A DNA stretch of 64,000 nucleotides from Armatimonadia bacterium (GCA_039679385.1 JBDKVB010000073.1:17539-81538), one strand, 5' to 3'. Shown: positions 30,665 to 49,575, numbered from the stretch's first letter. Numbers and translations are program-made. Notes: a model not told the origin generated them from the letters alone.

Positions 30665-32584
30665 ATGAGCGCTATACGATTAACGCTGCCGGATGGCTCA
30701 GAAAAGCAGGTGGAACGCGGGACTACTGTCCTGCAGGTCGCCGAACAGATCGGCAAGCGTCTGGCCCAGGCTGCGGTTGCCGGCAAGCTCGATGGGAAGC
30801 TGGTGGACCTCAGCACCCCAATCGAGCAGGACGCGCAGTTCGCGGTCATCACCTTCGACAGCCCTGAGGGTCCTGATGTGTACTGGCACTCGGCAGCTCA
30901 CGTCATGGCAGATGCCGTCGTACGCCTCTTCCCGAAGACGAAGCTCACCATCGGCCCACCGGTCGACGAGGGCTTTTACTACGATTTCGATACCGACGTC
31001 ACCTTCAGCGACGACGATCTTGCGCGCATTGAAGAGGAAATGGGCAAGATCATCGCCGCCGACGCTGCCTTCGAGCGCCGCGAAGTAAGCGCTGCAGAAG
31101 CCCGCGAGGCCTTCAAGGACAACCCGTACAAGCTGGAGATCGTCGACGAGATCGAGGCCGCCGGGGACCAGAAGATCAGCCTCTATCGGCACGGCGGCTT
31201 TGTCGACCTGTGCCGTGGACCCCACCTTCCCAGCACGGGTCGTATCAAGGCCTTCAAGCTCACCTCCGTGGCAGGCGCCTACTGGCACGGCGACGAGCAC
31301 AACCCCATGCTCCAGCGCATCTACGGGACAGCGTATCCGGACAGGAAGCTCCTGGACGAGCACATGCACCGGATTGAGGAGGCCAAGCGGCGCGACCACC
31401 GCAAGCTCGGTGCCGAGCTGGACCTCTTCAGCTTCCACCAGGAAGCCGGAGCAGGCCTGGTCTACTATCACCCGAAAGGCGCGATGCTGCGTCAGACCGT
31501 TCTGGACTTCAGCATCAAGGAGCATCTGAAGCGCGGCTACGACCTGGTACGCACGCCGCATCTGATCAAGAGCGATATCTGGTACACCTCCGGCCATCGG
31601 CAGCAGGGGTACCCGATGTACTTCACGGAGATCGACGGGCAGGAGTACGGCGTCAAGCCCATGAACTGCCCGGGGCACATTCTCATCTTCAAGACACGCA
31701 CACGCAGCTACCGTGACTTGCCCATCCGCTACTTCGAGCTTGGCACAGTCTACCGCCACGAGCGGGCCGGCGTGCTCCATGGACTCATGCGCGTCCGAGG
31801 CTTCACGCAGGACGATGCGCACATCTTCTGTCGTGAGGACCAGCTCGAGGACGAGCTCACGGGCGTCATCGACTTCGCAGCCTTCATGATGCGCACCTTT
31901 GGCTTCCCGGAGTACAAGGTGTACCTCGCGACGCGTCCCGAGAAGTCCGTGGGATCGGATGCGCAATGGGAACTCGCGACCTCCAAACTCGTGGAGGCAC
32001 TGGAAGCCAACCATCTTCCCTACGAGGAGGATCCGGGTGGCGGCGCCTTCTATGGTCCGAAGATCGATGTGAAGGTCAAGGACGCCATCGGCCGCCTCTG
32101 GCAGTGTCCGACGATCCAGTGTGACTTCACTCAGCCAGAGCGCTTCGACATTACCTATGTGGGCGAGGATGGTCAGCCGCACCGCCCGGTCATGGTTCAC
32201 CGCGTCGTGCTGGCCGGCATCGAGCGCTTCCTGGGGGTACTGATCGAGAACTACGCCGGTGCCTTCCCCGTCTGGTTGGCACCCGTGCAGGTGAGCGTGC
32301 TTCCTATCACCGACCGGAACCTCCCCTATGCGGAGAAGGTTGTGGCACGACTGATCGACGATGGCGTACGTGTGGAGATCGACCGCTTTGGCGGAACCCT
32401 CGGCAACAAGATCAGGCAGGCGCAGACCCAGAAAGTGCCCTTCATGTTTGTCGTGGGTGACAAGGAGGAGGCCGCGGAAGCGGTCGCCGTCAGGTCACGC
32501 GACAAGGGCGACCTCGGGCCGATGCCCCTCGACGACGCAGTGAACGCGGTCAAGAAGCTGGATGTGCCCGGCGCGACCGGATAG
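30665..32584 (+). CDS. thrS: threonyl-tRNA synthetase
   Basis: TGS N-terminus (MSAIRLTLPDGSEKQVERGTTVLQVAEQIG), editing-domain HxxxH, class II core (FRHE, GFTQDDAHIFC) and anticodon-binding C-terminus. Confidence 0.95.
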   Translation: MSAIRLTLPDGSEKQVERGTTVLQVAEQIGKRLAQAAVAGKLDGKLVDLSTPIEQDAQFAVITFDSPEGPDVYWHSAAHVMADAVVRLFPKTKLTIGPPVDEGFYYDFDTDVTFSDDDLARIEEEMGKIIAADAAFERREVSAAEAREAFKDNPYKLEIVDEIEAAGDQKISLYRHGGFVDLCRGPHLPSTGRIKAFKLTSVAGAYWHGDEHNPMLQRIYGTAYPDRKLLDEHMHRIEEAKRRDHRKLGAELDLFSFHQEAGAGLVYYHPKGAMLRQTVLDFSIKEHLKRGYDLVRTPHLIKSDIWYTSGHRQQGYPMYFTEIDGQEYGVKPMNCPGHILIFKTRTRSYRDLPIRYFELGTVYRHERAGVLHGLMRVRGFTQDDAHIFCREDQLEDELTGVIDFAAFMMRTFGFPEYKVYLATRPEKSVGSDAQWELATSKLVEALEANHLPYEEDPGGGAFYGPKIDVKVKDAIGRLWQCPTIQCDFTQPERFDITYVGEDGQPHRPVMVHRVVLAGIERFLGVLIENYAGAFPVWLAPVQVSVLPITDRNLPYAEKVVARLIDDGVRVEIDRFGGTLGNKIRQAQTQKVPFMFVVGDKEEAAEAVAVRSRDKGDLGPMPLDDAVNAVKKLDVPGATG

Positions 32585-32752
32585 GGCGCCACCACGGAGG
32601 CCACCAGTAGCAATGCTTGACGGTCGTGGGGGGAGGTACTCAGTGCGACGTGTCTGGCGAACCAAGGTACCTTCCCCTGCGCAGGTCGACCGTGGGGACG
32701 CGGGAGCGCGAGGTGGGCGAACTCTCCAGCAACACATACGGGGCCGCCTGGG

Positions 32753-35317
32753 GTGATCGAGACGCACCTGACCAACCAAGTCTGCTGTCTCGCAATGACA
32801 GTGCCCGCCCTGGCGACTCTGCTGCTGGCCGCGTACGCCTGGCGTCGTCGGTCCTGTCCGGGCGCCCCCTCCTTTACCTTGGCGATGATAGCTGCCTCCC
32901 TATGCTCCTTTGCCACTGCCATGGACTACGCCAGTGCCGCTCTGGAAGGCAAGGTCGCCTGGGCGCAGGTGGGCTACATCGGCGCCTCGACAGTCCCCGT
33001 GGCATGGCTGGCCTTCGCCGCACAGTACTCCGGACTGGACCACCTGATCAGTCGTCGGCGACTTGTCCTGCTGCTGATAGTCCCCGCTGTAACCGTCCTC
33101 GTTGCCTTCACCAACGGCGCCCACGGCTTGCTGTGGCGCGAGATCAGAACGGTTGACTACGGCGAGTTCCACACCTGGACCGTCACCCACGGAGCCTGGT
33201 ACCCGGTTCACCTGGCATACAGCTATCTTGCTCTTGCGACCGCCCTCCTTGCGATCGGGCACGCAATCGTGGTCCGACAGGGGGTCTACCGTGCTCAGGC
33301 GGTTCTTGTCTTGGTGGCAGCGGCGATTCCTATGGCCGGAGACTTGGCCTACCTGGTCGGTGCGAGCCCCCTCCCGAGTGAGAACCCTGCCCCCTTTCTC
33401 TTTGCCGCCTCCGGTGCAGCAATCGCCTGGAGCGCCCTTCGCTACCACCTCCTCGACCTGATCCCCATTGCCCGCGATGTCGTTGTCGAGGCGCTCTCAG
33501 ACGCGATCGTTGTACTCGATGAGCATGGGCGCATCGCCGACGCCAACAGCGCAGGGCAGCGCTTGGCCGGGCTACCACTGCACGACCTGATCGGTTGCAC
33601 GGTCTCCACCATCTCACCGGTCCTTGCCAGTCTCCCTGAGCATCTTGGGGATGACCAGCACATGCAGGTCGAGTTTCGTGTGGCCGACGACGGCACGCTG
33701 CACTGCTTCGATCTCCGTATCTCGTCCGTCACTGCGCCGGGAAGGGCCTGTGCCGGGACCGTCCTCCTGCTGTGCGATATAACCGCACAACGCCGGGCCG
33801 AGGATGCCCTGGAGGAGCAGCTCATCAGCTACGAGGACCTGGTGGACAGTGTGCGGGAAGCGGTACTCGTGCAGGATGCTGACGGTATCCTCATCTCCGC
33901 CAGCCGCGGTGTGGAGGAGGTCTTTGGGTTCCCACGCGACGAGTTACTGGGCCGATCTCTCTCAGATCTGATCCCGCAGAACCCCGACGAGAACGTGGCC
34001 CTGACCGACCGGCTGCATTGCGCTCTGGAGGGAGAACCCCAGCGCTTTGAGGCGCGGGGACGACGTTCAGACGGCGAGTCCTTCCCTGCTGCCGTGCGGC
34101 TCTACCGGACTTCGCAGCGAGGTGAAGCCGCGGTTGTGGCCCTTATCTCCGACACCTCGGAGCACCAACGGGCCGAGGAGAGTCAGCGTCTCGCGATAGC
34201 CGGCCAACTCGCCGCAGGCGTCGCTCACGAGTTCAACAACCTCCTCGCTGCTCTCCTTATGCGCGCCGAGCTTGCGGCAAGGTCGTCACACGAGGAGACG
34301 CGCGTCCTCGCGGCGGTTGTCAAGCGGTCCGCTCAGCGCGGGGCCGAGGTCTGCGGCAACCTGCTAGCCTTTGCACGACCGCGACCACCACGACCCACAC
34401 CTTTGCGTGTCGAGACCCCACTCGAGAGTGCCCTCCAGGTTGCACGCCATCAGCTCATGGCCAGTGGCGCTCAAGTAGTCCGTGACTTCCAGACCGGATC
34501 CCAGCAAGTGCTTGCCGATGACGGCCAGCTCGAGCAGGTCTTTCTGAACCTGATACTGAATGCCTGTCATGCCCTGGCAAGCGATAGTGTTCCCCCGGAG
34601 CGGCGGCAGTTGCGGGTCAGTACGCGCCTCGACCAAGGACCGGACGGGTCGAAGGAGGTGGTCGTGTCCGTCACCGACACCGGGGTCGGCATGAGCCCTC
34701 AGAGCCTCCGCAGGGCTTTCGAGCCCTTTTTCACCACCCGTGCATCGACCGACAAGGACATGCCCAAGGGCTCGGGCCTCGGACTGTCTGTCTCCCACGG
34801 CATTATCGCCGCTCACGACGGACACATCGAGCTGCAGAGCCAACTCGGCGAGGGCACGACGGTCGAGGTGCGTCTGCCGGCTGTGGCCTCGGCCCCAGGG
34901 CCACCCTCTGAGCCGGTCGAGGAGGAGACGATTCCCCTGTCAGCGTGTGCACCTGGTGTCGGCAGGGTTCTCGTCGCCGAGGATGAGGAGGAGGTTCGGT
35001 CGCTGATCAGTGAGGTCATCTCTCTATCCGGTTGCCAGACCATGGAGGTCGCCACCACAAGCGAGGCGATCTCAGCCCTTGGCCAACACCGGTTCAGTGC
35101 AGTCGTGTCGGACCTGATGATGCCCGGTGGGGGCGGCGAGGAGATACTGCGGTACTCCCAGACCCTCGACTGCCCGCCACCAGTGATCATCGTTACCGGC
35201 AAGATCGAGGCAGGGCTTGCGAACCAGGTCATGTCTCTCGGAGCTCGACGCCTGCTATCGAAACCTTTCAGCCTGCGGGAGTTGCGTAGCGCGGTTCTCG
35301 AACTGGTCGGCAACTAG
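32753..35317 (+). CDS. 7TM-PAS hybrid sensor histidine kinase with C-terminal receiver
   Basis: N-terminal 7-helix sensor (HisKA_7TM-like), two PAS blocks, HisKA LAAGVAHEFNNLLAALLMRAEL, HATPase_c (GVGMSPQSLRRAFEPFFTTR...GLGLSVSHGII) and REC (VLVAEDEEEVRSLI...AVVSDLMMPGGGG). Start is ambiguous: GTG at 32753 or ATG at 32795. Confidence 0.85.
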   Translation: MIETHLTNQVCCLAMTVPALATLLLAAYAWRRRSCPGAPSFTLAMIAASLCSFATAMDYASAALEGKVAWAQVGYIGASTVPVAWLAFAAQYSGLDHLISRRRLVLLLIVPAVTVLVAFTNGAHGLLWREIRTVDYGEFHTWTVTHGAWYPVHLAYSYLALATALLAIGHAIVVRQGVYRAQAVLVLVAAAIPMAGDLAYLVGASPLPSENPAPFLFAASGAAIAWSALRYHLLDLIPIARDVVVEALSDAIVVLDEHGRIADANSAGQRLAGLPLHDLIGCTVSTISPVLASLPEHLGDDQHMQVEFRVADDGTLHCFDLRISSVTAPGRACAGTVLLLCDITAQRRAEDALEEQLISYEDLVDSVREAVLVQDADGILISASRGVEEVFGFPRDELLGRSLSDLIPQNPDENVALTDRLHCALEGEPQRFEARGRRSDGESFPAAVRLYRTSQRGEAAVVALISDTSEHQRAEESQRLAIAGQLAAGVAHEFNNLLAALLMRAELAARSSHEETRVLAAVVKRSAQRGAEVCGNLLAFARPRPPRPTPLRVETPLESALQVARHQLMASGAQVVRDFQTGSQQVLADDGQLEQVFLNLILNACHALASDSVPPERRQLRVSTRLDQGPDGSKEVVVSVTDTGVGMSPQSLRRAFEPFFTTRASTDKDMPKGSGLGLSVSHGIIAAHDGHIELQSQLGEGTTVEVRLPAVASAPGPPSEPVEEETIPLSACAPGVGRVLVAEDEEEVRSLISEVISLSGCQTMEVATTSEAISALGQHRFSAVVSDLMMPGGGGEEILRYSQTLDCPPPVIIVTGKIEAGLANQVMSLGARRLLSKPFSLRELRSAVLELVGN

Positions 35318-35426
35318 AAGGTGCCTGAGGCGTGGCGACTGGCCACGTCGGAGCACGATAGCCACTGCCCATGTGTACCTATCAGGCGGGACTGTCGTCC
35401 CCCGTCCTCGGGGAGGTCGTACTCGA

Positions 35427-37205
35427 ATGCCCTACACCCCCGGTCGCATCGCCGACCGCAGCGTCGTCATCTACATGCAGGGAGCACTCTGCACACAGCC
35501 GACACAGGTCTTCCAGAGCCCCCATGCCCCGCGCGTCATCCAGCGGTTCCTCAGTCGGCTCATCAAACACGAATCCAATCTGCTTAGTCTCTTCGAGGGG
35601 CTGGAGATCAGTGGACAGCCGGAGGAGATCTGTGAGGGCGCCTTTGCGCTGAACCGCGTCCTTGGGCTGCTGGTCGATTGGAGGCCAGAACAGATCAGGC
35701 TCAAAGCGCCTGACGTTGCTCCCCTGGTACGTGACCCGATGGCCCTGGCACGTCTGGTGGAGCAGCTGTATGACCACTGGCGCGGACTGGAGCGCTACCT
35801 GATCTTCGAGGGCAAGGCCCTTGCCGACCGCGATCGGGCGCTGGAGGGCCATGTCACCTTCATCCACAGCAACCAGGACCTCACTGACCTGGTGCGCGAT
35901 GCCTACCGACGTATCGAGAGCAATCTGCGAGCCCACTGGCCGCGGGTCTACCGCCAGGTGCCTTCCGGCGCCAATATGAGCCTACTCATCGACAACATCG
36001 AGTGGCCCTGCCCGGACGGGCCCTACCAGATGCTCAAGCCCATCCGCATGGTACGGCTCGCCCTGCTCAACCCGCCGGTCGTGCTCTACCCGCGTTCAAA
36101 CCGACGACAGGGTCGCTTTGAGCCGGTCGACTACAACCCGCTGGAACGCGTGATCATCGACCCGGAGAAGTGGCTCTGCATTCCGGTCCGTGTCGGGCAA
36201 CTCACCATGCACGTGTACTTCGACCGGGACTTCCTCAGTCACGCGGTGTCGCTGGTGAACCTCTTCGAGCTGGCTGGTCATGAGGAGGCCCGTCAGAAGC
36301 CCGACGGCATTCTCATCTTCGGAGTAGCCCCGGCTGCCTTGCGGGGCGAGCCGACGGTCTTCTACGAAGACGAGGCCAACGACCTCGTCCTGGGCATCAT
36401 CGCCAAGTCCGAAGAGGTGGACTACTTCGGCTACTTCAAGAAGATGCTGCTCACGATGCACAACGTCATCATGATGCGCCGCGGTCGCCTCCCAATCCAT
36501 GGGGCCATGTGCCACATGGAGTTCAAGAACGGCTCGTGCAGCAATGTGGTGATCGTGGGGGACAGCGGCGCAGGGAAGTCGGAGACTCTTGAGGCCTTCC
36601 GCCTACTGGCTGATGACTGGCTCCGCGAGATGACGACGGTCTTCGACGACATGGGATCGGTCGCACTGACAGAAGAGGGCAAGCTCATCGCCTACGGGAC
36701 GGAGATTGGCGCCTTCGTGCGCCTCGACGATCTCGACATTGGCTATGCCTTCGGCCGTATCGACCGTGCCGTCTTCATGAACCCACATCGCCAGAACGCA
36801 CGGATCGTTATCCCCATCGCCGAGTACGACGACGTAGTCGCCGGTCACCCCGTCGACTTGCTGCTGTACGCCAACAACTACGAGCCGGTCGACGCTGACC
36901 ACCCGACGATCGAGTACTACCCCAGCGCTGAAGCCGCGATCAGTACCTTCCGCCAGGGCTTGCGCGCGAGTAAGGGGACGACCGACGAGAGTGGTCTGGT
37001 CGGCACCTACTTCGGCAACCCCTTCGGGCCGGAGCAACTGCAGGAGCGCCACGAGCCGATCGCTCAGCGGCTCTTCGCGCAGGCCTTTGCCGGTGGCGTG
37101 CGTGTCGGTGTGCTACGGACTCAGCTGGGCATTCCGGGAATGGAGCACGACGGGCCGCTGGCGGCTGCCAGGGAGCTGTTCCGGGAGGTCAGCGGCGGGG
37201 AGTAG
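35427..37205 (+). CDS. large protein with a C-terminal HPr-kinase/phosphorylase-like P-loop domain
   Basis: GGGAGGT SD 8 nt before the ATG at 35427. The C-terminal region HGAMCHMEF...VVIVGDSGAGKSETLEAFRLLADDWL matches the HprK Walker-A (GxSGxGKSE) and the downstream LADD motif. The N-terminal 400 aa have no motif I recognise. The longer ORF from 35217 overlaps the HK and is rejected. Confidence 0.6.
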   Translation: MPYTPGRIADRSVVIYMQGALCTQPTQVFQSPHAPRVIQRFLSRLIKHESNLLSLFEGLEISGQPEEICEGAFALNRVLGLLVDWRPEQIRLKAPDVAPLVRDPMALARLVEQLYDHWRGLERYLIFEGKALADRDRALEGHVTFIHSNQDLTDLVRDAYRRIESNLRAHWPRVYRQVPSGANMSLLIDNIEWPCPDGPYQMLKPIRMVRLALLNPPVVLYPRSNRRQGRFEPVDYNPLERVIIDPEKWLCIPVRVGQLTMHVYFDRDFLSHAVSLVNLFELAGHEEARQKPDGILIFGVAPAALRGEPTVFYEDEANDLVLGIIAKSEEVDYFGYFKKMLLTMHNVIMMRRGRLPIHGAMCHMEFKNGSCSNVVIVGDSGAGKSETLEAFRLLADDWLREMTTVFDDMGSVALTEEGKLIAYGTEIGAFVRLDDLDIGYAFGRIDRAVFMNPHRQNARIVIPIAEYDDVVAGHPVDLLLYANNYEPVDADHPTIEYYPSAEAAISTFRQGLRASKGTTDESGLVGTYFGNPFGPEQLQERHEPIAQRLFAQAFAGGVRVGVLRTQLGIPGMEHDGPLAAARELFREVSGGE

Positions 37206-37353
37206 GCGTTCGCCCTTTTCCAGCACGTCGCCACTCTTCCGAGAGCCGCCCACTCAGGGCGGCTCTTCTGTCCGGCCCGCAAGGTTAGTCGGCGGTGTCT
37301 GGCGAAGAAGTACCTATGCCATACCTTACCGTGCTCACCTGGGGGGCTCGTGT

Positions 37354-38619
37354 GTGGACCAAGTGTCATCTTTTACAGACAATGAGCTAGTGCAGGTGGT
37401 TGTTGTCATCGCACTGACTCTCGTCACGGGCATCACCCGCGAGGAGAAGGCCGCTGCCGAGCATACGACGGCCGTAGCGGGAGTTCGCACCTTCCCTATC
37501 ATCGGCTTGCTCGGCTATGGCCTCACGCTCCTATACCCCGACAACCCACTCCCGGTGACTCTGGGCCTCGCAGGGCTGTGTGGCTTCCTCGTCGCTGCCT
37601 ATGTGCACAAGCTTGGCGAGGGTAAGCACGGCATCACGACTGAGATGGCGGCACTGGCTGCCTATCTGGTCGGAGCCCTGGTGGCGCGCGACCTGATGTG
37701 GATCGCATGCTCCGTCTCGGTCGCGTGCGTGATGCTGCTGCAGTCAAAGACGGAACTGGAGAGCTTCGCCATCCGTCTCGCACCCCACGAACTCGGGACC
37801 TTCGTTCAGTTCCTCCTGCTGTCGGTCGTGATCCTCCCGGTCCTGCCCAACGCGGACTATACGCAGTTTCACATCAACCCCTTCCGCACCTGGGTGATAG
37901 TGGTCGCCGTCAGCGGCATATCCTACGCGGTCTACGTGATGCAGCGCGTCGTGCAAGCGCGCCACAGCCTGCTTCTCACTGCCCTCTTCGGGGGGGCCTA
38001 TTCCAGCACAGTCACTACTGTTGTCATTGCCAAGCGTTCGAAGACGCAGCCCGACCCGTTGCTCTATGCCGGTGCCATAGTCATGGCGTCCGGCGTCATG
38101 TACCTACGTCTGGCGATCTTGCTGTGGATCTTCAGCAGCACGCTCGGATGGACGCTGGGCCCCCGGCTCATAGCCCTGTTTGCAGCAGCAACCCTGGCGG
38201 GCTACCTGCTTACCTGTGTTGGGCGTGGTTGTCGCCGGGCCGCGCCGATGGTGGAGGACACTGATGCCCGCAACCCTCTGGAGATAGGCACCGCCGTCCT
38301 CTTCGCCGCCTTTTTCGTGGGCGTCTCGGTGGTCACGCAGTTGGCGGGGCGGCATCTGGGCAGCGCTGGCGTCTATGCCCTCGCAACGGTCATCGGGATG
38401 GTCGATATCACCCCCTTCGTCTTGAGCTTGACCCAGACTGCGGGGCGATCGACCCCTCTTGCCGTCGCCGCTGTCGCCGTCATCCTTTGCGCAGGCAGCA
38501 ATAACCTGTTGAAGGGTGTCTATGCCCTGGTCTTTGGCGAGCGCCGCGCTGGCATCGCAGCCTTCGTCGGACTGATCGCCCTGGCGGCGGCCAGCTTCCT
38601 GACGCTCATCGGTCTCTGA
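37354..38619 (+). CDS. MgtC/SapB-family membrane protein with DUF4010-like C-terminal extension
   Basis: MgtC-like N-terminus (ITREEKAAAEHTTAVAGVRTFPIIGLLG) followed by about 8 more TM helices. GTG start 8 nt after GGGGGG. The start is uncertain. Confidence 0.55.
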   Translation: MDQVSSFTDNELVQVVVVIALTLVTGITREEKAAAEHTTAVAGVRTFPIIGLLGYGLTLLYPDNPLPVTLGLAGLCGFLVAAYVHKLGEGKHGITTEMAALAAYLVGALVARDLMWIACSVSVACVMLLQSKTELESFAIRLAPHELGTFVQFLLLSVVILPVLPNADYTQFHINPFRTWVIVVAVSGISYAVYVMQRVVQARHSLLLTALFGGAYSSTVTTVVIAKRSKTQPDPLLYAGAIVMASGVMYLRLAILLWIFSSTLGWTLGPRLIALFAAATLAGYLLTCVGRGCRRAAPMVEDTDARNPLEIGTAVLFAAFFVGVSVVTQLAGRHLGSAGVYALATVIGMVDITPFVLSLTQTAGRSTPLAVAAVAVILCAGSNNLLKGVYALVFGERRAGIAAFVGLIALAAASFLTLIGL

Positions 38620-38675
38620 GGCCGCTCTTCCTGGCCTGTTCACACCCATGCCGTTGTCATGCTCTGGAGGTCGTT

Positions 38676-41600
38676 GTGATGCTGCTTGCTGCTTTCATTG
38701 CCTGTCTGGCTACCTCCGCAACACCATCCCTGGCTGACGTCCCACTGCACACCTTCGACGACCTCTCCCTGTGGTCAGCCTACAAGGACGGCGGCAACCC
38801 GCCCGTCTTCACCTCAGACACACAGACCACGCGAGAGGGCAAGGCACTTCGCCTCAAGTACACCGACCGGACGCCGCAATGGGGCAACCTCAACGGCCCG
38901 TGCACTGTTCCACCGGAGGCCGTGGCTCTGCGCTTCTGGATCTACAAGCACTCCGCAGCTCCAGGGGCAGCCATGCATATCTGGCTGTTCGAGCCGGATG
39001 GCGATGGCTGGGTGCAGCGCGTACCCTTCTCCCCCGGCGGGGAGCTTTCGGCGACGCCCACCGGCTGGCAGCAGGTACGCATGCCCATCAGCGCCTTCCG
39101 CTTCGACCCGCGTGGCAAGAGCACCCGACAACTGACCAGTGTGAGCCGCATGCTGATCGGCTGCAACTTCGCCGATCTGGAGGTGACCGTGGATTCGATG
39201 ACCTGGGAGACCGGTCAGACGGCTGAGCCGATACCGCTGCCGACCACGCCGAACCTCAAGATCGAGACAGGAACCAGGGGCGCCCTGGGCATTCTCGACC
39301 TAGGACCGGGACTACCCGCGTCCTTCCGACCGGCTCACAGGCCCACAGAGCTGAGTGCGGTTCTGCGTGCTGCCGGCTTCGGCGTAACGGTACTGAAGCC
39401 CGGTGACTTCGCCGATCCCGCAGTGCTTGCGCCGGCCAAGCTCGATGCGGTCATCCTGCCCTGCGGGCCCTACTTCCCTCAAGCCGCACAGGCCACTTTC
39501 CTGGCCTACGTGAAGGCAGGCGGGAGCTTCCTGTCCTCGGACGGCTATGCCTTCGACCAACTGCTGCAGCTCACGAACAAGGGCTGGTCGGCGTCCGGCG
39601 TAGAGAAGACGGCGGCGGACATGGACAAGCCCGACGAGGCTGCGCCGATGGGTCTCAACAACCGGCTGGGCAAGACCGGCGACTCCATGACCTTCAGCCC
39701 GGACCAGATCCCGGTCTTCGATCCTCAGTTCCAGTTGGAGCACGCGACTCGGCTGCGCCTGTCAGAGGGCTATGGACAGCCCGATTCCGCTGCGGAGGGC
39801 CTCACGAAGGATGCAGCCAGGACGGCCCAGCCCACCTATTCGTCTCTTGCGCCCTTCGAGGGCTTCTCTGCCTGCGTCCTGACCGGCCTCAACAGCGCCG
39901 TCTTCCCGCAGGTGTATCGCCGCTGGGTGCCTGTTCTCGACGCCGTTACCGACGAGGGGCAGGTACGTGGCTGCGGTCTGGCCCTGGCGCTGAACTACAC
40001 CGGTCCCTTCCGAGGCTCCGTATGGGCCTTCTCGGGCTTGGCGGACGGAACGGACCTGTTCCTCGGGGATGCCTCCCGCCGCGACCTTCTCGTGCGTGTA
40101 GTGAGCGACCTCACCGAGAAGGTGTTCCTGCACGAGCTGACCACCGACCTTGCCTGCTACGAGCCCGGAGAGACGCCCCGGGTGTCGGTGAAGCTCTCCA
40201 ACTTCGGCAAGCGACCGGCGGAGCGCAAGCTCTGCATCGCAATCAGCGACGGGACCGTGCTCGAGAAGGAACTGACGATCCAGCCGGGCGAGACCCAGAC
40301 CTTCACAGTCTCAGCATCGACGGCCGAACTGGCCCGTGATGGCGATCTGGTTCCGGTGAGTGCCTGGCTGGCCACAGGAGGTCGCCTCGCTGACCGACTG
40401 GAGACGGCGTACTGCGTGCGCAGCCCACAGGTTCTCGCCTCCGGACCTCGCGTCCGGTGGCAGGGCAACTACATGACCGTCGACGGTCGCGCAACCTTCC
40501 TCATCGGCAGCAACCAGACTGGGATGATGTACTACTCGCCCGATGAGAACCCGCGAACCTGGGACCGTGACTTCCGCAGCATGTCGGACAATGGCTACCA
40601 CGTCCTCCGCATCCTGCACTTCTCCCCTTTCGCCAAGGGGAGCTATGAGAGCGGGTACCGTACCGAGCCACTTGACCTGCTGGAGCGGCCGCAGAAGCTC
40701 GTGCGTCAGATGGACGCCATCGTCCAACTCGCCCAGAAGCACCGCGTGGCCCTCTTCCTTGCCCTCCATGACTGGCAGCCTCTGGCGCTCAGCGACGAGG
40801 AACTCCGAGCACAGGCCGACTGGGACCACTTCTGGGCCGCCCGCTATCGCGACGTTCCGGGCCTCTTCTTCGACGTGCAGAACGAGCCGACGGTCGATGT
40901 GCCTGACCGGCCGGATATCAGGGCGCTGTGGAACAACTTCCTCAAGGACCGCTACGGGAGCGATGAGGCCTTACGGGCTGCCTGGAAGAAGCACCCGCCG
41001 GAGGCCGCGATGCCGGACGTCCCACTCAGTGCCATCACCGACGAATGGGACGATTGCCGCAGTGCCGACCGCAAGCGCTTTGAGGCCGAGATTCTCAACC
41101 GTTGGGTGAAGGCGAATGTGGATGGCCTGAAGTTGGGGAGCCCTGAAGCACCGACCACCGTCGGCTTCCTGCAGTCGATGCCCAACGCCGACAAGCTCCT
41201 GGGCACACGCCACACAGACTTCTCCAACATGCATTTCTACGGGTCGATCCAGAGCCTGGCGCCCCAACTCAAGTTCATCGACCGCCGCTTCGAGGGCAAG
41301 GGCTTCAGCCTCGGCGAGTTTGGCGCCCGGGATGCACACACGGCCCGCAATCAGGGCAGCACACGAGTTCCGGTCGCGGAGTGCACGGACTACTTCCGAA
41401 GTGTCGCGCACTACGTTACGGGCATGGGCGGGGCCTTCGCAGCAGTCTGGTCTTGGAAGGACTTCGACGAGATGGTCTTCCCGTGGGGACTGGTGCATCG
41501 CGAGTCCTGCGTCACCAAGCCCTGGCTCCATGCTTTGCTGCAGAGCTACCTGTTCGCCTCCTTCGCCCAGCCGGTCTATGAAGCGCCCGAGCTATATCTG

Positions 41601-42650
41601 CTGGTCCCAGACCAGAACCGCATCGGGCCGAGGTTCAACGAGATCCACCAGGCCCTGTTTCGCGCCGTCGACCTTCTCCTCGACCAGCGTGTCAACTTCG
41701 GCGTGCTCAACGAGGAAGACCTCAACAAGCTGCCGCCGCAGGCACGGGCGCTTCTGTGGCCTCTCCCCTACTGCCCGACCGATGCCACCTTCGCGCGCGT
41801 CAGAGACTGGGTCAAGGCCGGCGGCACCCTCTACCTGTCGGGAGATGTAGGCTTCGACCCGCAGCGGCAGCCTACCCGCGGTAGTCGCCGTGCTGAGCTC
41901 GGACTTGCAGATACCCCTGCTCTGTCTCCCTTCGACGTGCCCGCCGAAGCCTGGGGCCAGGCTCCTGTCGAGACGCAGGTGGGACAGGGCAAGGTCCTCG
42001 CCGTACCCTATCCACTGGAGCTGCGAGCCCACGAGGCGGACGCCAAGGTGTACACGCGCTTCCTGCGCATGGCCGGCATCGCCGCGATCGAGCTTGTCTG
42101 CGACGAGGCACAGGGGCCCTTCCGCGCCTTGAGCATCCCCACTGCCGGCGGCGGGCGACTGACGATGATAGCTCGCAACAGCAGCAAGCGTGATCTGGCC
42201 CAGGTCACCTTGCCGGCGGCAGGTGTGACTCTGGAGCTTGGCGCCGAGGGATGCGCCTTCGTCCTCCAGGGAGCACAGGGGCAAGTGATCGGTGCGGAGA
42301 CCGACGGGCGCCTGGTCCTCGGCGACCAGAAGGAGGGCTTCGCCTCCGCCGCGGGGCATTTCGGTGTCTGTGCGCTGGACGGCAGAGACCTGCGTCAGTC
42401 GCAGCAGGTGATGGTGTTGCCGGGCGAGTGCGAGACTGTTCGTGTGCCCGGTCTTGCCGGCCTGAGAGGCGGGCAGGTTCGGCTTGGGGTGCCGGCACAA
42501 CTGCAACCGGCGACGGTCTTCTCTGGGTCAGCCCTGTCCTTCGAGCCTGCGGGCACCGGACGCATCGCAGTGGTTGCTGCCGCTACTCAGATGCAGGCAG
42601 CCACCGACAAGGTCCTCGCGCATCTACACCTGCAGACCGCGAACTGGTAA
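38676..42650 (+). CDS. secreted 1324-aa multidomain glycoside hydrolase (clan GH-A TIM barrel) with GATase1-like and beta-sandwich domains
   Basis: Signal peptide (MMLLAAFIACLATSATPSLA). GATase1/GH42-trimerisation-like segment (DAVILPCGPY...YVKAGGSFLS). Clan GH-A acid/base motif FFDVQNEPT and nucleophile region FSLGEFGA. Confidence 0.65.
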   Translation: MMLLAAFIACLATSATPSLADVPLHTFDDLSLWSAYKDGGNPPVFTSDTQTTREGKALRLKYTDRTPQWGNLNGPCTVPPEAVALRFWIYKHSAAPGAAMHIWLFEPDGDGWVQRVPFSPGGELSATPTGWQQVRMPISAFRFDPRGKSTRQLTSVSRMLIGCNFADLEVTVDSMTWETGQTAEPIPLPTTPNLKIETGTRGALGILDLGPGLPASFRPAHRPTELSAVLRAAGFGVTVLKPGDFADPAVLAPAKLDAVILPCGPYFPQAAQATFLAYVKAGGSFLSSDGYAFDQLLQLTNKGWSASGVEKTAADMDKPDEAAPMGLNNRLGKTGDSMTFSPDQIPVFDPQFQLEHATRLRLSEGYGQPDSAAEGLTKDAARTAQPTYSSLAPFEGFSACVLTGLNSAVFPQVYRRWVPVLDAVTDEGQVRGCGLALALNYTGPFRGSVWAFSGLADGTDLFLGDASRRDLLVRVVSDLTEKVFLHELTTDLACYEPGETPRVSVKLSNFGKRPAERKLCIAISDGTVLEKELTIQPGETQTFTVSASTAELARDGDLVPVSAWLATGGRLADRLETAYCVRSPQVLASGPRVRWQGNYMTVDGRATFLIGSNQTGMMYYSPDENPRTWDRDFRSMSDNGYHVLRILHFSPFAKGSYESGYRTEPLDLLERPQKLVRQMDAIVQLAQKHRVALFLALHDWQPLALSDEELRAQADWDHFWAARYRDVPGLFFDVQNEPTVDVPDRPDIRALWNNFLKDRYGSDEALRAAWKKHPPEAAMPDVPLSAITDEWDDCRSADRKRFEAEILNRWVKANVDGLKLGSPEAPTTVGFLQSMPNADKLLGTRHTDFSNMHFYGSIQSLAPQLKFIDRRFEGKGFSLGEFGARDAHTARNQGSTRVPVAECTDYFRSVAHYVTGMGGAFAAVWSWKDFDEMVFPWGLVHRESCVTKPWLHALLQSYLFASFAQPVYEAPELYLLVPDQNRIGPRFNEIHQALFRAVDLLLDQRVNFGVLNEEDLNKLPPQARALLWPLPYCPTDATFARVRDWVKAGGTLYLSGDVGFDPQRQPTRGSRRAELGLADTPALSPFDVPAEAWGQAPVETQVGQGKVLAVPYPLELRAHEADAKVYTRFLRMAGIAAIELVCDEAQGPFRALSIPTAGGGRLTMIARNSSKRDLAQVTLPAAGVTLELGAEGCAFVLQGAQGQVIGAETDGRLVLGDQKEGFASAAGHFGVCALDGRDLRQSQQVMVLPGECETVRVPGLAGLRGGQVRLGVPAQLQPATVFSGSALSFEPAGTGRIAVVAAATQMQAATDKVLAHLHLQTANW

Positions 42651-44413: not shown

Positions 44414-46360
44414 GTGACAGACCGCAGGGAGACCATGCACCAGCGCTACCGTCGCAAAAGGGCCGCCTTCATGCTCGCGCTCGTCGCCGGTGTAGTTGCC
44501 GCAGTCTGGAGCTACCTACCCGCGGGCGACGTATTGGAACGACTGGAGTTGCGGACGATCGATGCGCGGTTCCTTGCCCGAGGCCCCAAGGCGCCCTCCG
44601 GCCAAGTGGTGATCGTCGAAGTCGACGAGGCGAGCCTGGACAGGATCGGTGGCTGGCAATGGCCACGCCAGACCTTCGGCGAACTCGTCCGTCGTCTGGA
44701 TGCGGCCGGCGCCAGGGCCATCGGGATGGACATCCTCTTTGCGGAGCCGGATGAGGAGCAGGGCGGCGAGGTCTCCGATGCAGTCTTCGCACACGACGTC
44801 CGCAAGTCGGGTAGGGTCTTCCAGGCGCTCGGCGGTCTCCATCAGGAGCCGGGGCTGACACAGGTCCCCGGAGATGCCGCGCGCTTCGCCTGGTCTTCGG
44901 TGCAGACCCGGCCGGGAACGGGCCTTAGCACCGGGGCGATCCTCCAGGAGGTTCTCGACGCCGCCAGCCCATATAAGGATCTTGCCGAGGCGAGCGCTGG
45001 TGCGGGGTTCGTTGACGTGGTGCCTTCGCTCGACGGCGTGTACCGGCAGGTGCTGCCTGTCGTGAAGATGCAGGGGCAGGTCTACCCCTCACTATCCCTG
45101 GCACTTGCGGATTTCGCCCTGGGCGTTAGCCCCAAGGACGTGGTAGTCACAGCCGGCGACAGCATCCGCCTGGGCAACACGCGACGCGTCCCCCTCCAGC
45201 GTGATGGGACCATGTTGATCGACTACGCAGGTCCCAGTCGCACCTTCGCCTACTACTCCGCTGCCGACGTGCTCGAGGCCCCGGAGAGGATCCCCGCAAA
45301 CGCCTTCCGCGACAAGATCGTTCTTGTCGCCGTCACGGCACTGGGTCTCTACGACCTGCGCGCGTGTCCCTTCGGAGCGGTCTTCAACGGAGTAGAGGTG
45401 CAGGCTAACGCGCTGGACAATATCCTTACGGGGCACTTCGTCCAGCGGCTGGGTCCTGAGTGGTCAGCCGCCCTGGCCCTGCTCTGGGCCCTGATCGTCG
45501 GTCTGTGCCTGACGGTGGTATCGCCGCCGCTGTGGGTCCCGGCAACGGTGCTAGGCTTGGTCGTCCACAACCTGACGGCAACCTGGGTGTTCGCGCACAG
45601 TGGGCTCCTGGTTGATATGGTGGTGCCCAGTGTGGGGATTGCCCTTGCACTGGTGACGGTTCCCGCATACCAGTTGGTGGCCGAGGAGGAGCAGCGCCGG
45701 GGCTGGCAGGACACTCTGAGCCGGTTCGTTCCGCGCGAACTGGCCGACAACCTCATGGAGGATGTCGGAGCCCCGGCGGTTCAGGGCGAGATGCGGTCGA
45801 TCACCGTTCTCTTCGCCGACCTGCGCGGGTTCACGGCGGCCAGTGCCAACATCGGTGCGGCGGAGACCGTCGAACTGCTGAACCGCTACTTCCGCCTCAT
45901 GCACGAGGTGATCGAGCAGTTCGGGGGAACTCTGGACAAGTTCGTCGGGGACGGGCTCATGGCGCTCTTCAACGCCCCTCAGGCGCAGATCGACCATGCC
46001 GCTCTGGCGGTCGCGACAGCGCTGGAGATGCAGCGCCAGGTTGAGACGCGTAAGGACGAATGGGAGTTCTACCACATGCCCGAGTTGCGCGTCAGCATCG
46101 GGATCAGTACCGGCGATGCCGTCGTAGGCTATGTGGGGTCCGGCGAGAGGATGCAGTACACTGCCATCGGAGCCCATGTCAACCTCGCCAGCCGTCTCGA
46201 GGAACTTGCCAAGGACTTGGACGTCAAGATAGCCATTAGCCCGGCTACCCATGCCCTGGTTAAGGACGTCGTGGACTGTGCTGAACTGGGAGTATTCGAA
46301 CTGCACAACGTGCCCGCTCCCGTGAAGGTCTATGAGGTCCGAGGATACGGCGCAGGATAG
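44414..46360 (+). CDS. CHASE2-sensor class III adenylate/guanylate cyclase
   Basis: N-terminal TM, CHASE2-like periplasmic region, about 3 TM helices, then a CYCc catalytic domain (ITVLFADLRGFTA...KFVGDGLMALFNAP...GISTGDAVVGYVG). Alternative start at ATG 44435. Confidence 0.8.
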   Translation: MTDRRETMHQRYRRKRAAFMLALVAGVVAAVWSYLPAGDVLERLELRTIDARFLARGPKAPSGQVVIVEVDEASLDRIGGWQWPRQTFGELVRRLDAAGARAIGMDILFAEPDEEQGGEVSDAVFAHDVRKSGRVFQALGGLHQEPGLTQVPGDAARFAWSSVQTRPGTGLSTGAILQEVLDAASPYKDLAEASAGAGFVDVVPSLDGVYRQVLPVVKMQGQVYPSLSLALADFALGVSPKDVVVTAGDSIRLGNTRRVPLQRDGTMLIDYAGPSRTFAYYSAADVLEAPERIPANAFRDKIVLVAVTALGLYDLRACPFGAVFNGVEVQANALDNILTGHFVQRLGPEWSAALALLWALIVGLCLTVVSPPLWVPATVLGLVVHNLTATWVFAHSGLLVDMVVPSVGIALALVTVPAYQLVAEEEQRRGWQDTLSRFVPRELADNLMEDVGAPAVQGEMRSITVLFADLRGFTAASANIGAAETVELLNRYFRLMHEVIEQFGGTLDKFVGDGLMALFNAPQAQIDHAALAVATALEMQRQVETRKDEWEFYHMPELRVSIGISTGDAVVGYVGSGERMQYTAIGAHVNLASRLEELAKDLDVKIAISPATHALVKDVVDCAELGVFELHNVPAPVKVYEVRGYGAG

Positions 46361-46458: not shown

Positions 46459-49400
46459 ATGGTCGCACATCGTACCTGTTCCACCCTCCCACCGACAGCG
46501 ATCTGCAGCCGCCCGCATCCAGCCCACTCCGCCGGGGCGAGCCATCTGATCGCCCTCAGCCTTCTCAGCCTGGCTGTGGTGGCGCTCTTGCCCTTGCTTC
46601 CGTCCCGCGCTTCCGCAGCGCCGGTGACCGCTCTCCTGGAGGATGCCGAGGGCAAGCTCAAGGGTTGGCCCGGCAACGCGGTTGTCGATCCCGACGCCTC
46701 CCAGGGCAAAGCCTCGGTGTGCTGGACGCCGGATGCGCACGCGAACGCCCAGTCCCTCAACTTCGACTTCGCCGGCCGCGGTGTCGAGTTGTCCGAGTGG
46801 GACCGCTTGGTCTTCGATTACAAGATGCCCAAGAGTGGCTGCATCTGGTGGGGTGTCAAGATCGTCGACTTCCCGCTCGGCGACGGCATGCAGGCAACCT
46901 GGCAGCTCACCGACCCCGACGCAACCAAGCCGGGGGTCTGGCACAAGGCCGTCATCGACCTGCAGCACCCGACCTGGCTGTGGGGCGACAAGCCCGACAA
47001 GACGTCTCAGCTCATCATGTTCCGCTGCCAGATGGCTGAGGGTAAGGTCACGCCCATCCTGCTGGACAACCTCCGTCTCGAGCGCGACCCCTTCCGGATC
47101 GAGAAGGTGGAACGACAGGAGCCGGTTCAGGAGGGCGACGTCCTCTACTCCAACTACGAGGTCCGGCTGCAGAACGCCACCGACGACCAGATCACGGTAG
47201 CTGTCGGTCTGCGACATACTGACGCGAACCTCACGGCCGAGGCCGGCCTTCAGGAAGTCGTGATACCCGCTCGGTCCGTGCGGTCCGTCAAGGCGCAGCT
47301 CATCGCTCAGCTCAAGGGGGAAAAGGCCGCTTCCCCACTCACTGCTCTCAGCACAGAGCTCTTCGCACAGGTGAAAGGCATGGCTGACACAGAAAAGACT
47401 GCCGCACTGACCCTTGCCGTCCCGCTGGGGAAACTGCAGCACCCCTTTGCTCTACTGACGAAGCAAGACGTACCTCGCATACTCGAAGCTGTGCAGAAGT
47501 CGCCTGAGGCCAAGGCAGTCTATGACGGCCTCAAGCAGCGTGCCGACTCCTGGCTGACCAAGGCGCCCCAGTATCCCGACCGCGGCGGCCAGTGGTGGCA
47601 CTGGTACACCTGCAAGGCTTGCGGCGGCAAACTGGTCACGAAATCGCCGACGGAGCATGTCTGCGCTGACTGCGGTAAGGTATACACCGGCTGGCCCTAC
47701 GATGATGTGGTCCTGGACCGCGATCATAGTGCTCTCGCCGGCGCCATTCGCGACTGTGGTCTGATGTTCACCCTCACCGGCAACAAGGCCTATGCGGCCA
47801 AGGCCCGCGAGATCCTCATGGGCTACGCCGAGCGGTATCTGAACTACCCACTCCACGACATCAACGGCAAGCCGAACAAGGGCGGCGGCCATGTGGGCCC
47901 GCAGACCCTGGACGAGTCGACGTGGCTCATTCCCGTGGTGCAGGGCTTCGACTGTATCTACGACACCCTCAGCGCCGACGACGTCAAGTACCTCGCCGAC
48001 AAGATGCTGCTTCCGGCGGCCTGGCTCATTCACGACCACCAGTGGGGCATCCACAACATCTGCTGCTGGCATGACTCGGCCTACGGGCTGGTTGGCCTGG
48101 CCCTGGCGGAGCCGACGCTGGCCGCCGATGCGATCGCAGGGCCCAAGGGCTTCCACCAGCAGGTCGAGAAGGGCATCTCCGATGATGGTCTGTGGTATGA
48201 GGGCGCCTGGGGTTACCACTACTACACCATGATGGCGCTGAGCCCGCTTGCAGTCGCTGCCCACAACATCGGCATCGAGATGTACAGCGAACGATACAAG
48301 CGGATGTACGACGCGCCCCTGAAGTTCATGGCCCCCAAGGGTGAGCTGCCGGCCTTCCATGACAGCGGCACCTCCAACGCCCTCGGTTCGGGGAACCTCT
48401 ACGAGATCGCCTATGCTCGCTGGCAGGATCCGATCCATCTGCTGCCTGTGATCCAGGCCGGGCGCAAGAGCCTGGAGACTCTGCTCTACGGAGTCCCGCT
48501 TGGTGCGGAACCCGAGTTCAAGCTGCAGTCCACAGTCTTCCCGGCCGCCGGCTGGGCCATCCTCCGCAGCGGTGACGTGGGCACCAGCCTTGCCGACAAG
48601 CACATCCCGCAGAACTACCTGGCCCTTGACTTCGGCCCCCATGGCGGCGGACACGGGCACCCGGACAAGCTCTCCTTCGTCTTCTATGGCAAGGACACAC
48701 TCCTGGCCGAGGACCCCGGCTGCATCGCCTACGGCAACCCCGCCCACCAGGGCTGGTTCCGCCAGACCGTGAGTCACAACACCGTGGTCGTCAACGGCAA
48801 GAGCCAGCAGGCTTGCACCGGCGAGACGCAGTTCGCCTCCTTCGGAGACGGCATCGGCATCTTCAGCGCACGGGCCGACGGGGCCTATCCGGGAGTCCGC
48901 CTGCGCCGCACCGTGGCCCTCATCGGTGACCGCCTGATCGACGTTTTCCTGTGCCAGGCGACCGAGGGCGAGGCAACCTTCGACTGGTGCTACCACAACC
49001 GAGGCGCCTTCGAGAGCGTCCTGCCTCTGCAGGCGATGACCACAGGCCCCACCGGTGACGGCTACAGCTGGGCAAAGGAGTGGCGACAGGCTGAGGCGAA
49101 TCAGGAGTGGACGGCAGTCTGGCGCGGCGACAAGGCACCCAGCGTTGCCTTCGCTCAAGCTGCCCCCGATGGCTCTCGCGAGGTTCTTGCCGCCATCGGC
49201 ATGGGCAACCCGACGAAGATCAAGGTGCCCTTCGTCGTTTCCCGTCAGAAGGGCAAGAGCGCGCTGTTCTGTTCAGCTATGCAGGTCTTCGATGGACCTG
49301 ACACACCGCAGTTGCAGGTGCGCGTGCTTCCCATCGGCTCCTTCAGCGGCAACGCCGAAGAGCAGCCCGTGGCAGTCGAGGTTACCGGCAACGGTATGCG

Positions 49401-49575
49401 TGACGTGCTGCTGGTCAACCCCGCTGGTGGCGTCCTGAAGGCCGGCGAGTTTGAGCTCGAGGGACAGGGCGCTGCCCTGCGGTACCGAGGTGAGGCCCTG
49501 GAGAGTCTGGTCGTCGCCGGAGAGGCCAAGGTCCGCGTCAACGGCCGCCTGACCGCACCGACTGCCGGCAAGTAG
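46459..49575 (+). CDS. secreted heparinase II/III-like (alginate-lyase-superfamily) protein with N-terminal beta-sandwich and Zn-ribbon
   Basis: Signal peptide. C4 ribbon (CKACGG...CADCGK). Heparinase II/III-like (alpha/alpha)-toroid and C-terminal beta-sheet region with HGGGHGHPDKLSF. Confidence 0.65.
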   Translation: MVAHRTCSTLPPTAICSRPHPAHSAGASHLIALSLLSLAVVALLPLLPSRASAAPVTALLEDAEGKLKGWPGNAVVDPDASQGKASVCWTPDAHANAQSLNFDFAGRGVELSEWDRLVFDYKMPKSGCIWWGVKIVDFPLGDGMQATWQLTDPDATKPGVWHKAVIDLQHPTWLWGDKPDKTSQLIMFRCQMAEGKVTPILLDNLRLERDPFRIEKVERQEPVQEGDVLYSNYEVRLQNATDDQITVAVGLRHTDANLTAEAGLQEVVIPARSVRSVKAQLIAQLKGEKAASPLTALSTELFAQVKGMADTEKTAALTLAVPLGKLQHPFALLTKQDVPRILEAVQKSPEAKAVYDGLKQRADSWLTKAPQYPDRGGQWWHWYTCKACGGKLVTKSPTEHVCADCGKVYTGWPYDDVVLDRDHSALAGAIRDCGLMFTLTGNKAYAAKAREILMGYAERYLNYPLHDINGKPNKGGGHVGPQTLDESTWLIPVVQGFDCIYDTLSADDVKYLADKMLLPAAWLIHDHQWGIHNICCWHDSAYGLVGLALAEPTLAADAIAGPKGFHQQVEKGISDDGLWYEGAWGYHYYTMMALSPLAVAAHNIGIEMYSERYKRMYDAPLKFMAPKGELPAFHDSGTSNALGSGNLYEIAYARWQDPIHLLPVIQAGRKSLETLLYGVPLGAEPEFKLQSTVFPAAGWAILRSGDVGTSLADKHIPQNYLALDFGPHGGGHGHPDKLSFVFYGKDTLLAEDPGCIAYGNPAHQGWFRQTVSHNTVVVNGKSQQACTGETQFASFGDGIGIFSARADGAYPGVRLRRTVALIGDRLIDVFLCQATEGEATFDWCYHNRGAFESVLPLQAMTTGPTGDGYSWAKEWRQAEANQEWTAVWRGDKAPSVAFAQAAPDGSREVLAAIGMGNPTKIKVPFVVSRQKGKSALFCSAMQVFDGPDTPQLQVRVLPIGSFSGNAEEQPVAVEVTGNGMRDVLLVNPAGGVLKAGEFELEGQGAALRYRGEALESLVVAGEAKVRVNGRLTAPTAGK

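Follow-up and report, generated by a model that had tools for sequence, protein, structure and literature searches.

Protein B, a P-loop protein of 592 amino acids (aa) encoded in a 64,000-nucleotide (nt) stretch of DNA from an Armatimonadia bacterium (GCA_039679385.1 JBDKVB010000073.1:17539-81538; the whole stretch is called the window here), belongs to the superfamily that contains phosphoenolpyruvate carboxykinase (PEPCK) and HprK/P, and has the full architecture of PEPCK, not that of HprK. Its gene is real and conserved, and its uncharacterised family is a branch of the PEPCK fold with a wide distribution. At a probability of about 50%, protein B would be a divergent PEPCK-type housekeeping enzyme in aspartate, oxaloacetate and phosphoenolpyruvate (PEP) metabolism, and not a signalling kinase. 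A preliminary description of this DNA had suggested a place for it in a two-component phosphorelay as an HprK-fold Ser/Thr kinase, linked to a hybrid histidine kinase encoded upstream and possibly to an MgtC-family membrane protein encoded downstream. The coding region and its features, in window coordinates, are as follows.

35427–37205, plus strand: protein B, 592 aa from an ATG start, member of the PEPCK superfamily.
35499–35936, plus strand: N-terminal helical domain (aa ~25–170) with a globin-like fold.
36423–36443, plus strand: YFGYFKK (aa 333–339), equivalent to PEPCK YGGEMKK (phmmer to 1j3b, hhalign to PckA).
36492–36509, plus strand: PIHGAM (aa 356–361); phmmer pairs RGRLPIHGAM with RGVFPMHASA.
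36558–36584, plus strand: P-loop GDSGAGKSE (aa 378–386), equivalent to PEPCK GLSGTGKTT (kinase-1a).
36606–36617, plus strand: LADD (aa 394–397), inside the post-P-loop helix (384–398 in the model).
36642–36656, plus strand: FDDMG (aa 406–410), probable equivalent of PEPCK D268-D269 (kinase-2), on model strand 399–414.
36696–36722, plus strand: GTEIGAFVR (aa 424–432), the family's most conserved motif, colinear with PckA.
36795–36815, plus strand: NARIVIP (aa 457–463), equivalent to PEPCK NTRVSYP (N331-T-R333), paired identically by phmmer and hhalign.

When an AlphaFold model of protein B (predicted local distance difference test 84, predicted template modelling score 0.85) was compared with the PDB by Foldseek, the top 50 matches were all ATP- or GTP-PEPCKs (E ~1e-14, 360–440 aligned columns), and B has the two-domain fold of these enzymes. 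PEPCK structures superpose on the model over 337–375 residues, versus 121–138 for HprK; the expected likeness to HprK/P stands for the P-loop domain, which is that of the superfamily, but not for the architecture. Similarly, hhalign aligned a profile of the B family with the single sequence of E. coli PckA (E 2e-5, aa 273–535 of B with 145–411 of PckA), and by sequence the region shared with PEPCK extends from at least aa 273 to ~570. Residues ~180–350 form a beta-rich counterpart of the PEPCK N-domain (its C-terminal half), ending in YFGYFKK, and only the first ~175 residues are a separate domain. The earlier proposal that the C-terminal 200 aa are HprK-like and the 400 aa before them unrelated is thus wrong.

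Residues were compared by phmmer with T. thermophilus PEPCK (1j3b), by hhalign with E. coli PckA (in a copy 100% identical to 1aq2) and by a check of motif order, and conservation was calculated over 70 diverse members of the B family. Eleven motifs are colinear between the two proteins, at offsets of 120–144 residues, and the residues of B that pair with those of PckA are 85–100% conserved.

PckA NMF150, B NLF278.
PckA KPD164, B KPD291.
PckA Y207-G-G-E-M-K212-K213, B Y333-F-G-Y-F-K338-K339.
PckA H232, B H358.
PckA G248-LSGTGKT, B G378-DSGAGKS.
PckA D268-D269, B D407-D408 (probable).
PckA EGGCYAK (K288), B TEIGAFVR.
PckA N331-T-R333, B N457-A-R459.
PckA FLTADAFG, B LLYANNYE.
PckA FSACFGA, B YFGNPFG.
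PckA LVNTGW, B VLRTQL.

In PckA, the residues behind the shared motifs bind Mn2+, nucleotide phosphates, oxaloacetate, PEP and CO2, with N331-T-R333 binding oxaloacetate and CO2. The PEPCK-specific YxGxxKK, the manganese-ligand histidine, the kinase-1a P-loop and the NxR motif are all present in B, where they are aligned, colinear and conserved: YFGYFKK (Y 95%, G 94%, K 97%, K 85%), H358, the equivalent of the Mn ligand H232 (88%), and NARIVIP (N 91%, R 90%, P 91%). The P-loop GDSGAGKSE, found at aa 378–386 as the Walker-A motif reported earlier, is 85–98% conserved and in sequence lies nearest the P-loop of HprK/P. GTEIGAFVR, in which G424 and G428 are invariant, is probably the equivalent of EGGCYAK with K288, judging from its position in the motif order. 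The LADD motif also reported earlier is present at aa 394–397, but it did not hold up as a conserved motif: it lies in the post-P-loop helix, is absent from the positions at least 75% conserved and is kept only in close relatives, while the conserved acidic pair is that of FDDMG (D407 92%, D408 92%, G410 97%).

Taken as whole proteins, B and PckA (PF01293; E. coli 1aq2, T. cruzi 1ii2, T. thermophilus 1j3b) have shared cores of similar size and are both two-lobed with a C-terminal P-loop domain, NMF/NLF, KPD, YxGxxKK, His, the P-loop, a probable DD, NxR and FxxxFG following one another in the same order. In contrast, B is only 16–20% identical to PckA and below every profile threshold, it carries ~127 additional N-terminal residues as the globin-like domain, it has no recognisable GRSPKDK (R65), its P-loop reads GDSGAGKSE versus GLSGTGKTT, and its helix between P-loop and DD is longer. 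GTP-PEPCK (PckG) and pyrophosphate (PPi)-PEPCK have no sequence-level match to B, and enzymes of the PPi type are roughly double its size.

The fold matches of the N-terminal domain have modest scores but form a strikingly homogeneous list, and the domain resembles sensor globins and RsbR. Its conserved motifs are YxxWRxxxRY (aa 115–124) and YR (aa 160–161), and none of its histidines is conserved among the 70 members. As no His is conserved, haem binding was judged unlikely, and the model is read as a family-specific domain that is probably globin-like and non-haem.

Protein B is not HprK/P. The two share the P-loop domain of the superfamily and a near-identical Walker A (G-D-S-G-x-G-K-S-E), and B is, as had been pointed out, roughly twice the size of HprK/P (592 versus ~310 aa). 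However, B has the globin-like helical domain and a PEPCK-type beta region in place of the HprK N-domain, and it carries the PEPCK-specific YxGxxKK and NxR, which in PEPCK are small-molecule binding motifs. No match of B to Hpr_kinase_C (PF07475) or the NCBIfam HprK models was found at E ≤ 0.1. In a Pfam census of the 70 members, 45 weakly matched PEPCK_ATP, 25 DUF4914 and 10 Hpr_kinase_C (best E 7.7e-5 for the last).

The genes around B were compared across relatives, whose loci are given L-numbers. In most loci B is monocistronic, and what lies next to it differs widely: when 148 immediate neighbours were put through an unbiased Pfam census, no partner dominated among the 202 families recovered, which include aspartokinase (AA_kinase, ACT), EPSP synthase, chorismate synthase, Lyase_1 and a class II AspRS-type synthetase, and ptsH, ccpA and phosphotransferase system (PTS) genes were absent from the top families of this census. 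Where B is tightly linked to other genes, however, the linkages all point to one metabolic node. For example, an aminotransferase gene overlaps B by 8 nt (L118) or ends 19–23 nt 5' of it (L150/151), and a gene 14 nt after B has aspartate aminotransferases as its best NCBIfam matches, below cut-offs (L139). An aspartate ammonia-lyase gene follows B after 85 nt (L093; NF008909, 616.9 bits versus a cut-off of 510), asd-lysC (aspartokinase) precedes it by 15 nt (L088/89, with the same order in L108), aspS precedes it by 13–15 nt (L023/27/29), argG-argH precede it in a Clostridium subclade, and in Armatimonadota three different arrangements have aroA and aroC as its flanking genes. A single transamination separates aspartate from oxaloacetate, and PEP is a substrate of EPSP synthase.

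B-like PEPCK-fold modules also occur within bacterial proteins of ~2,000–2,200 aa (P0243, encoded at 8001–14441 of L097; also P0257, P0259, P0262 and P0263). In the two that were scanned, P0243 and P0257, the module is part of a fusion of ~2,100–2,200 aa with a domain of the class I/II aminotransferase fold, which is divergent yet scores above the Pfam threshold, and the L097 fusion gene adjoins genes for asparaginase, glutamate dehydrogenase and pyruvate phosphate dikinase (PPDK). At L095 (contig of ERZ25070731), the locus sequence does not encode the query protein when translated and the neighbour coordinates contain stop codons, which suggests a mismatch of coordinates or frame, and the Aminotran_5 neighbour there is known from a precomputed table only. 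No canonical PEPCK was found in the window or in any of 177 loci, the search covering loci as opposed to whole genomes.

If protein B works as PEPCK does, GDSGAGKS would bind a nucleotide, and K339, H358 and D408 a divalent metal. Together these would pass a phosphoryl group to the enolate form of a small 2-oxo-acid, or take one from it, while Y333, K338, N457 and R459 hold the acid in place. We infer these roles, and the reaction, from PEPCK. The most likely reaction would be oxaloacetate + nucleoside triphosphate (NTP) <-> PEP + CO2 + nucleoside diphosphate, by which B would join aspartate/asparagine metabolism, via oxaloacetate, to PEP. A PEPCK-type reaction appears the most economical, because aspartate lies a single transamination away and the product is what EPSP synthase uses. 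Replacement of shikimate kinase or homoserine kinase, an idea prompted by the aroA/aroC and asd-lysC neighbours, was rejected: neither would account for both contexts or for the conservation of the residues that contact substrate in PEPCK, which makes the idea less parsimonious.

Several results weigh against assigning B to PEPCK-type chemistry. On the side of sequence, B scores below the thresholds of the PEPCK profiles (PF01293, 13.7 versus 26.5 bits; NF006821, 15 versus 369), the hhalign probability against the single PckA sequence is only 76%, and a search of the PDB with the family profile (70 diverse members) returned generic P-loop noise and no PEPCK, so that the evidence for homology to PEPCK is that of fold, hhalign and motifs. 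Methods disagree on the register of the DD pair, phmmer pairing the PEPCK DD with LADD and hhalign placing it a few residues off. The region of R65 (GRSPKDK), the N-domain arginine that in PckA binds the substrate carboxylate, is reached by no alignment, R227 (in NxRxGxF), R176 and R123 being the candidates in B, and conservation of Y115, W118, R119, R123, Y160, R161 and R176 in or next to the family-specific domain suggests a modified or larger substrate site. On the side of gene context, the top family of the census, Aminotran_1_2 (class I/II aminotransferase), accounts for only 4 of the 148 neighbours, and NCBIfam assigned no specificity to the fused aminotransferase-fold domain, which is too divergent. 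A first tblastn tally of aspartate, shikimate and tricarboxylic acid cycle genes was dropped because it was circular, its queries having been picked from the loci themselves; after removal of self and close-relative matches it came to ~0.14 per locus versus ~0.1 expected, and it was replaced by the unbiased census. In addition, a literature search found no paper on the family or on an assayed member. The probability of about one half reflects the small numbers, the circularity of the first tally, the unassigned specificity of the fused domain, the unlocated counterpart of R65 and an absence of canonical PEPCK that holds for the window and the 177 loci.

Some of these results would also fit an enzyme that applies the PEPCK fold and phosphoryl-transfer machinery to a different small molecule of aspartate/2-oxo-acid metabolism, with the N-terminal domain shaping or gating the active site. 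This is a serious though rather unlikely alternative. It would accommodate the extreme sequence divergence of B from all three PEPCK classes, the missing R65 equivalent, the Arg/Tyr/Trp cluster conserved in the family-specific domain, the occurrence of two paralogues (P0040 and P0021) in one assembly and partners that are mostly aspartate enzymes and not classical gluconeogenic genes. A sister family points the same way: DUF4914 (PF16260, uncharacterised), which the 25 members noted above match weakly (best E 5.6e-5) but B itself does not at E ≤ 0.1, is probably, from these profile matches, the sister of B's family within the superfamily; a literature search found no paper mentioning it. However, Y207, K212, K213, H232, N331 and R333, through which PEPCK contacts oxaloacetate, PEP, CO2 and Mn, all have conserved counterparts in B, and the same substrate as PEPCK is therefore the simplest reading; the closeness of oxaloacetate to aspartate, moreover, accounts for the gene context with no need of a new substrate. 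The likeness of the N-terminal domain to sensor globins and RsbR could instead mean that B is a regulatory or sensor NTPase, in which a globin-like sensor controls a PEPCK-derived nucleotide module, like non-catalytic PEPCK-fold subunits. That is improbable, as catalytic and substrate residues are strongly conserved across phyla, which would be unexpected in a pseudo-enzyme, no haem-ligand His is conserved in the globin-like domain, and the neighbours are metabolic enzymes and not signalling proteins.

More improbable still is the phosphorelay itself, in which B, as a Ser/Thr protein kinase of the HprK fold, would be coupled to the adjacent hybrid kinase and would phosphorylate the receiver domain (REC) of that kinase or a small protein, or be controlled by one of them, with an output to MgtC. 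The genes and features around B lie as follows.

30665–32584, plus strand: thrS, threonine--tRNA ligase (TIGR00418, 700.9 bits versus a cut-off of 383.65).
32753–35317, plus strand: hybrid sensor histidine kinase with HisKA_7TM, two PAS, HisKA, HATPase_c and REC (Pfam domains).
35410–35416, plus strand: GGGGAGG, Shine-Dalgarno-like, 10 nt 5' of the ATG of protein B (read from the sequence).
37241–37267, plus strand: 11-base-pair (bp) GC-rich hairpin followed by TTCTGT, a probable terminator, 36 nt after the stop codon of B.
37354–38619, plus strand: MgtC + DUF4010 membrane protein, 421 aa (Pfam).
38676–42650, plus strand: 1324-aa protein with weak glycoside-hydrolase-like matches (Pfam below or near cut-off), syntenic in L004/L005.

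Much of what the preliminary description said of this arrangement was confirmed. The kinase, B and MgtC + DUF4010 genes lie where it had placed them, 109 nt (given as 110) separate the kinase stop from B, with GGGGAGG as the strong Shine-Dalgarno sequence, and no PTS, HPr or CcpA family was found among the 15 genes scanned within ~10 kilobases (kb) either side of B. The upstream protein is a seven-transmembrane–PAS hybrid histidine kinase, its Pfam domains all above cut-offs (HisKA_7TM 16–238, PAS 245–348 and 360–470, HisKA 484–544, HATPase_c 589–710, Response_reg 739–848) and its phospho-accepting residues intact, namely the H-box His in AHEFNN (aa 491) and the receiver Asp in SDLMMPG (aa 786). 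Its open reading frame comprises 854 aa from a GTG, an in-frame ATG at 32795 would yield 840 aa, and the L001 homologue is called at 839 aa. Likewise, the downstream protein is an MgtC/DUF4010 membrane protein, with both domains above cut-off (MgtC, PF02308, 46.7 bits versus 31.4; DUF4010, PF13194, 167.6 versus 30).

What is not conserved is the adjacency. Neighbours were searched by tblastn in the first 87 loci and, after a second scan of the genome collection, by clustering over 121 neighbourhoods made non-redundant at 80% identity. The kinase adjoins B only in L001–L003, where B is ~97% identical, and the MgtC/DUF4010 gene lies behind B only in L001–L005 (tblastn matches in L001, L003, L004 and L005). 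In L004/L005, where B is 69% identical, thrS, B, MgtC/DUF4010 and a 1334-aa gene stand in the same order without the kinase, and L008 (B 71% identical) has no MgtC gene next to B. In the first 87 loci, by tblastn, neither the window kinase nor MgtC has a homologue beside B outside the window lineage, the other kinase matches being weak (27–36% identity) and 5.3–8 kb away. The clustering found no partner of B common across lineages and, outside the window lineage, neither kinase nor MgtC beside it; no conserved adjacency to a histidine kinase or response regulator emerged, five clusters of adjacent neighbours in more than three neighbourhoods being without annotation. As L004/L005 have thrS-B-MgtC without the kinase, the kinase was either acquired by the window lineage, between thrS and B, or lost from the sister lineage, and thrS is the ancestral upstream neighbour of B. 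Between the window and L001 (1249–3816) the kinase is 86% identical, versus 94–97% for the flanking thrS, B and MgtC genes, and its GC content at third codon positions is 0.74 versus 0.79–0.83 in neighbouring genes; by identity it is the fastest-evolving gene of the block, and identity and composition together suggest fast evolution or a separate history.

The HprK-like sequence of the P-loop, the weak Hpr_kinase_C matches of 10 of the 70 members and a 109-nt spacer without a convincing terminator, which would allow co-transcription with the kinase in the window lineage, are what can be said for a phosphorelay. Set against them are the restriction of the kinase to ~97%-identical relatives and of MgtC to the window lineage, the far shorter superposition on HprK, the lack of any Hpr_kinase_N or Hpr_kinase_C match for B, the poor conservation of LADD and the hairpin between B and the MgtC gene. 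The HprK–histidine kinase–MgtC neighbourhood, conservation of which had been named as the check, is confined to the window lineage, and this largely refutes the phosphorelay together with the MgtC-linked output. The kinase and the MgtC gene are not functionally tied to B, and their adjacency is an accident of lineage.

The hairpin at 37241–37267 has a perfect 11-bp stem (arms GAGAGCCGCCC/GGGCGGCTCTC) with a weak T-tract behind it, and the RNA fold of 37200–37300 reaches -44.9 kcal/mol (z = -3.2). A strict promoter and terminator (T-tract) scan of 32400–38800 found nothing above shuffle expectation and did not call this hairpin, which nevertheless, by its predicted fold, probably terminates B; the MgtC/DUF4010 gene is a unit apart from B, behind it. 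In the kinase–B spacer, neither the strict scan nor folding (not significant, z = -0.66) revealed a convincing terminator, and its alignment with the thrS–B spacer of L004 was uninformative; in L004 itself B follows thrS after a 90-nt gap and is preceded by a strong thrS terminator hairpin. Read-through from the kinase into B is possible in the window lineage and is not evidence of a functional link. An Rfam scan of the 250–370-nt leader 5' of B in eight loci, the majority from Clostridium and the rest from Moorella and other sources, found no riboswitch. Not adjacent to B are a ZMP/ZTP riboswitch ~2 kb 3' of it in a Clostridium locus (L046, 11621–11701) and a group II intron domain fragment in Neomoorella (L031, 2197–2278).

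Elsewhere in the window, pheS, pheT and genes for an amidohydrolase and a TIM-barrel isomerase lie farther 5' than thrS. The 1324-aa protein (38676–42650) has sub- or near-threshold matches to GH5, GH42, DUF4350 and a xyloglucan-binding domain and is 54% identical over 1311 aa to its counterpart in L004 (1334 aa). Its gene is followed by those for a DUF4382 protein, a CHASE2-domain adenylate/guanylate cyclase (44414–46360) and a heparinase II/III and alginate-lyase-like protein (46459–49575), the last two a few kb 3'.

The family of protein B is large. Among 8,000 candidates scored, 6,625 homologues were retained at E ≤ 0.001, nearly all of 575–600 aa and conserved end to end; an exhaustive search gave 497 clusters at 50% identity, and at least 594 loci were found in the genome collection. 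Carriers include Armatimonadota, Nitrospirota/Thermodesulfovibrio, many Clostridium species, Neomoorella, Atribacterota, Spirochaetota, Planctomycetes, Neomarinimicrobiota and DPANN archaea, with named members in Clostridium botulinum, C. sporogenes, C. butyricum and Moorella. One assembly, GCA_900174595.1 (L006, L092), which may be mixed, holds the paralogues P0040 and P0021, each ~60% identical to window B, one between aroA and aroC and the other behind prfA-prmC-tsaC-ychF. No Pfam or NCBIfam model reaches threshold for protein B, and since no curated model claims it, the earlier remark that it could not be assigned to a characterised family holds true. Public names of the homologues conflict, with "phosphoenolpyruvate carboxykinase" (in some cases "(ATP)") or "hypothetical protein" at NCBI and UniRef and "EcfA2" at JGI, and none is backed by a curated model at threshold.

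For the window, the attractive story of an HprK-fold kinase wired into a phosphorelay falls away, and the residual interest lies in the family, which is large and phylogenetically wide and combines the PEPCK fold and catalytic residues with a unique globin-like domain. It is conceivable, if doubtful, that PEPCK-fold enzymes have in this family a fourth class, distinct in structure and unlike the ATP, GTP and PPi classes in substrate or regulation; such a class may, for example, comprise an aspartate-linked 2-oxo-acid kinase or carboxykinase that the globin-like domain gates. In that case the name "phosphoenolpyruvate carboxykinase", which thousands of entries bear, those of Clostridium botulinum and C. 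sporogenes among them, would be wrong or incomplete, and if B is not a PEPCK at all, thousands of database names would be wrong. If, on the other hand, B is the working PEPCK of these anaerobes, reconstructions of their PEP–oxaloacetate–aspartate metabolism would rest on an annotation without a curated model.

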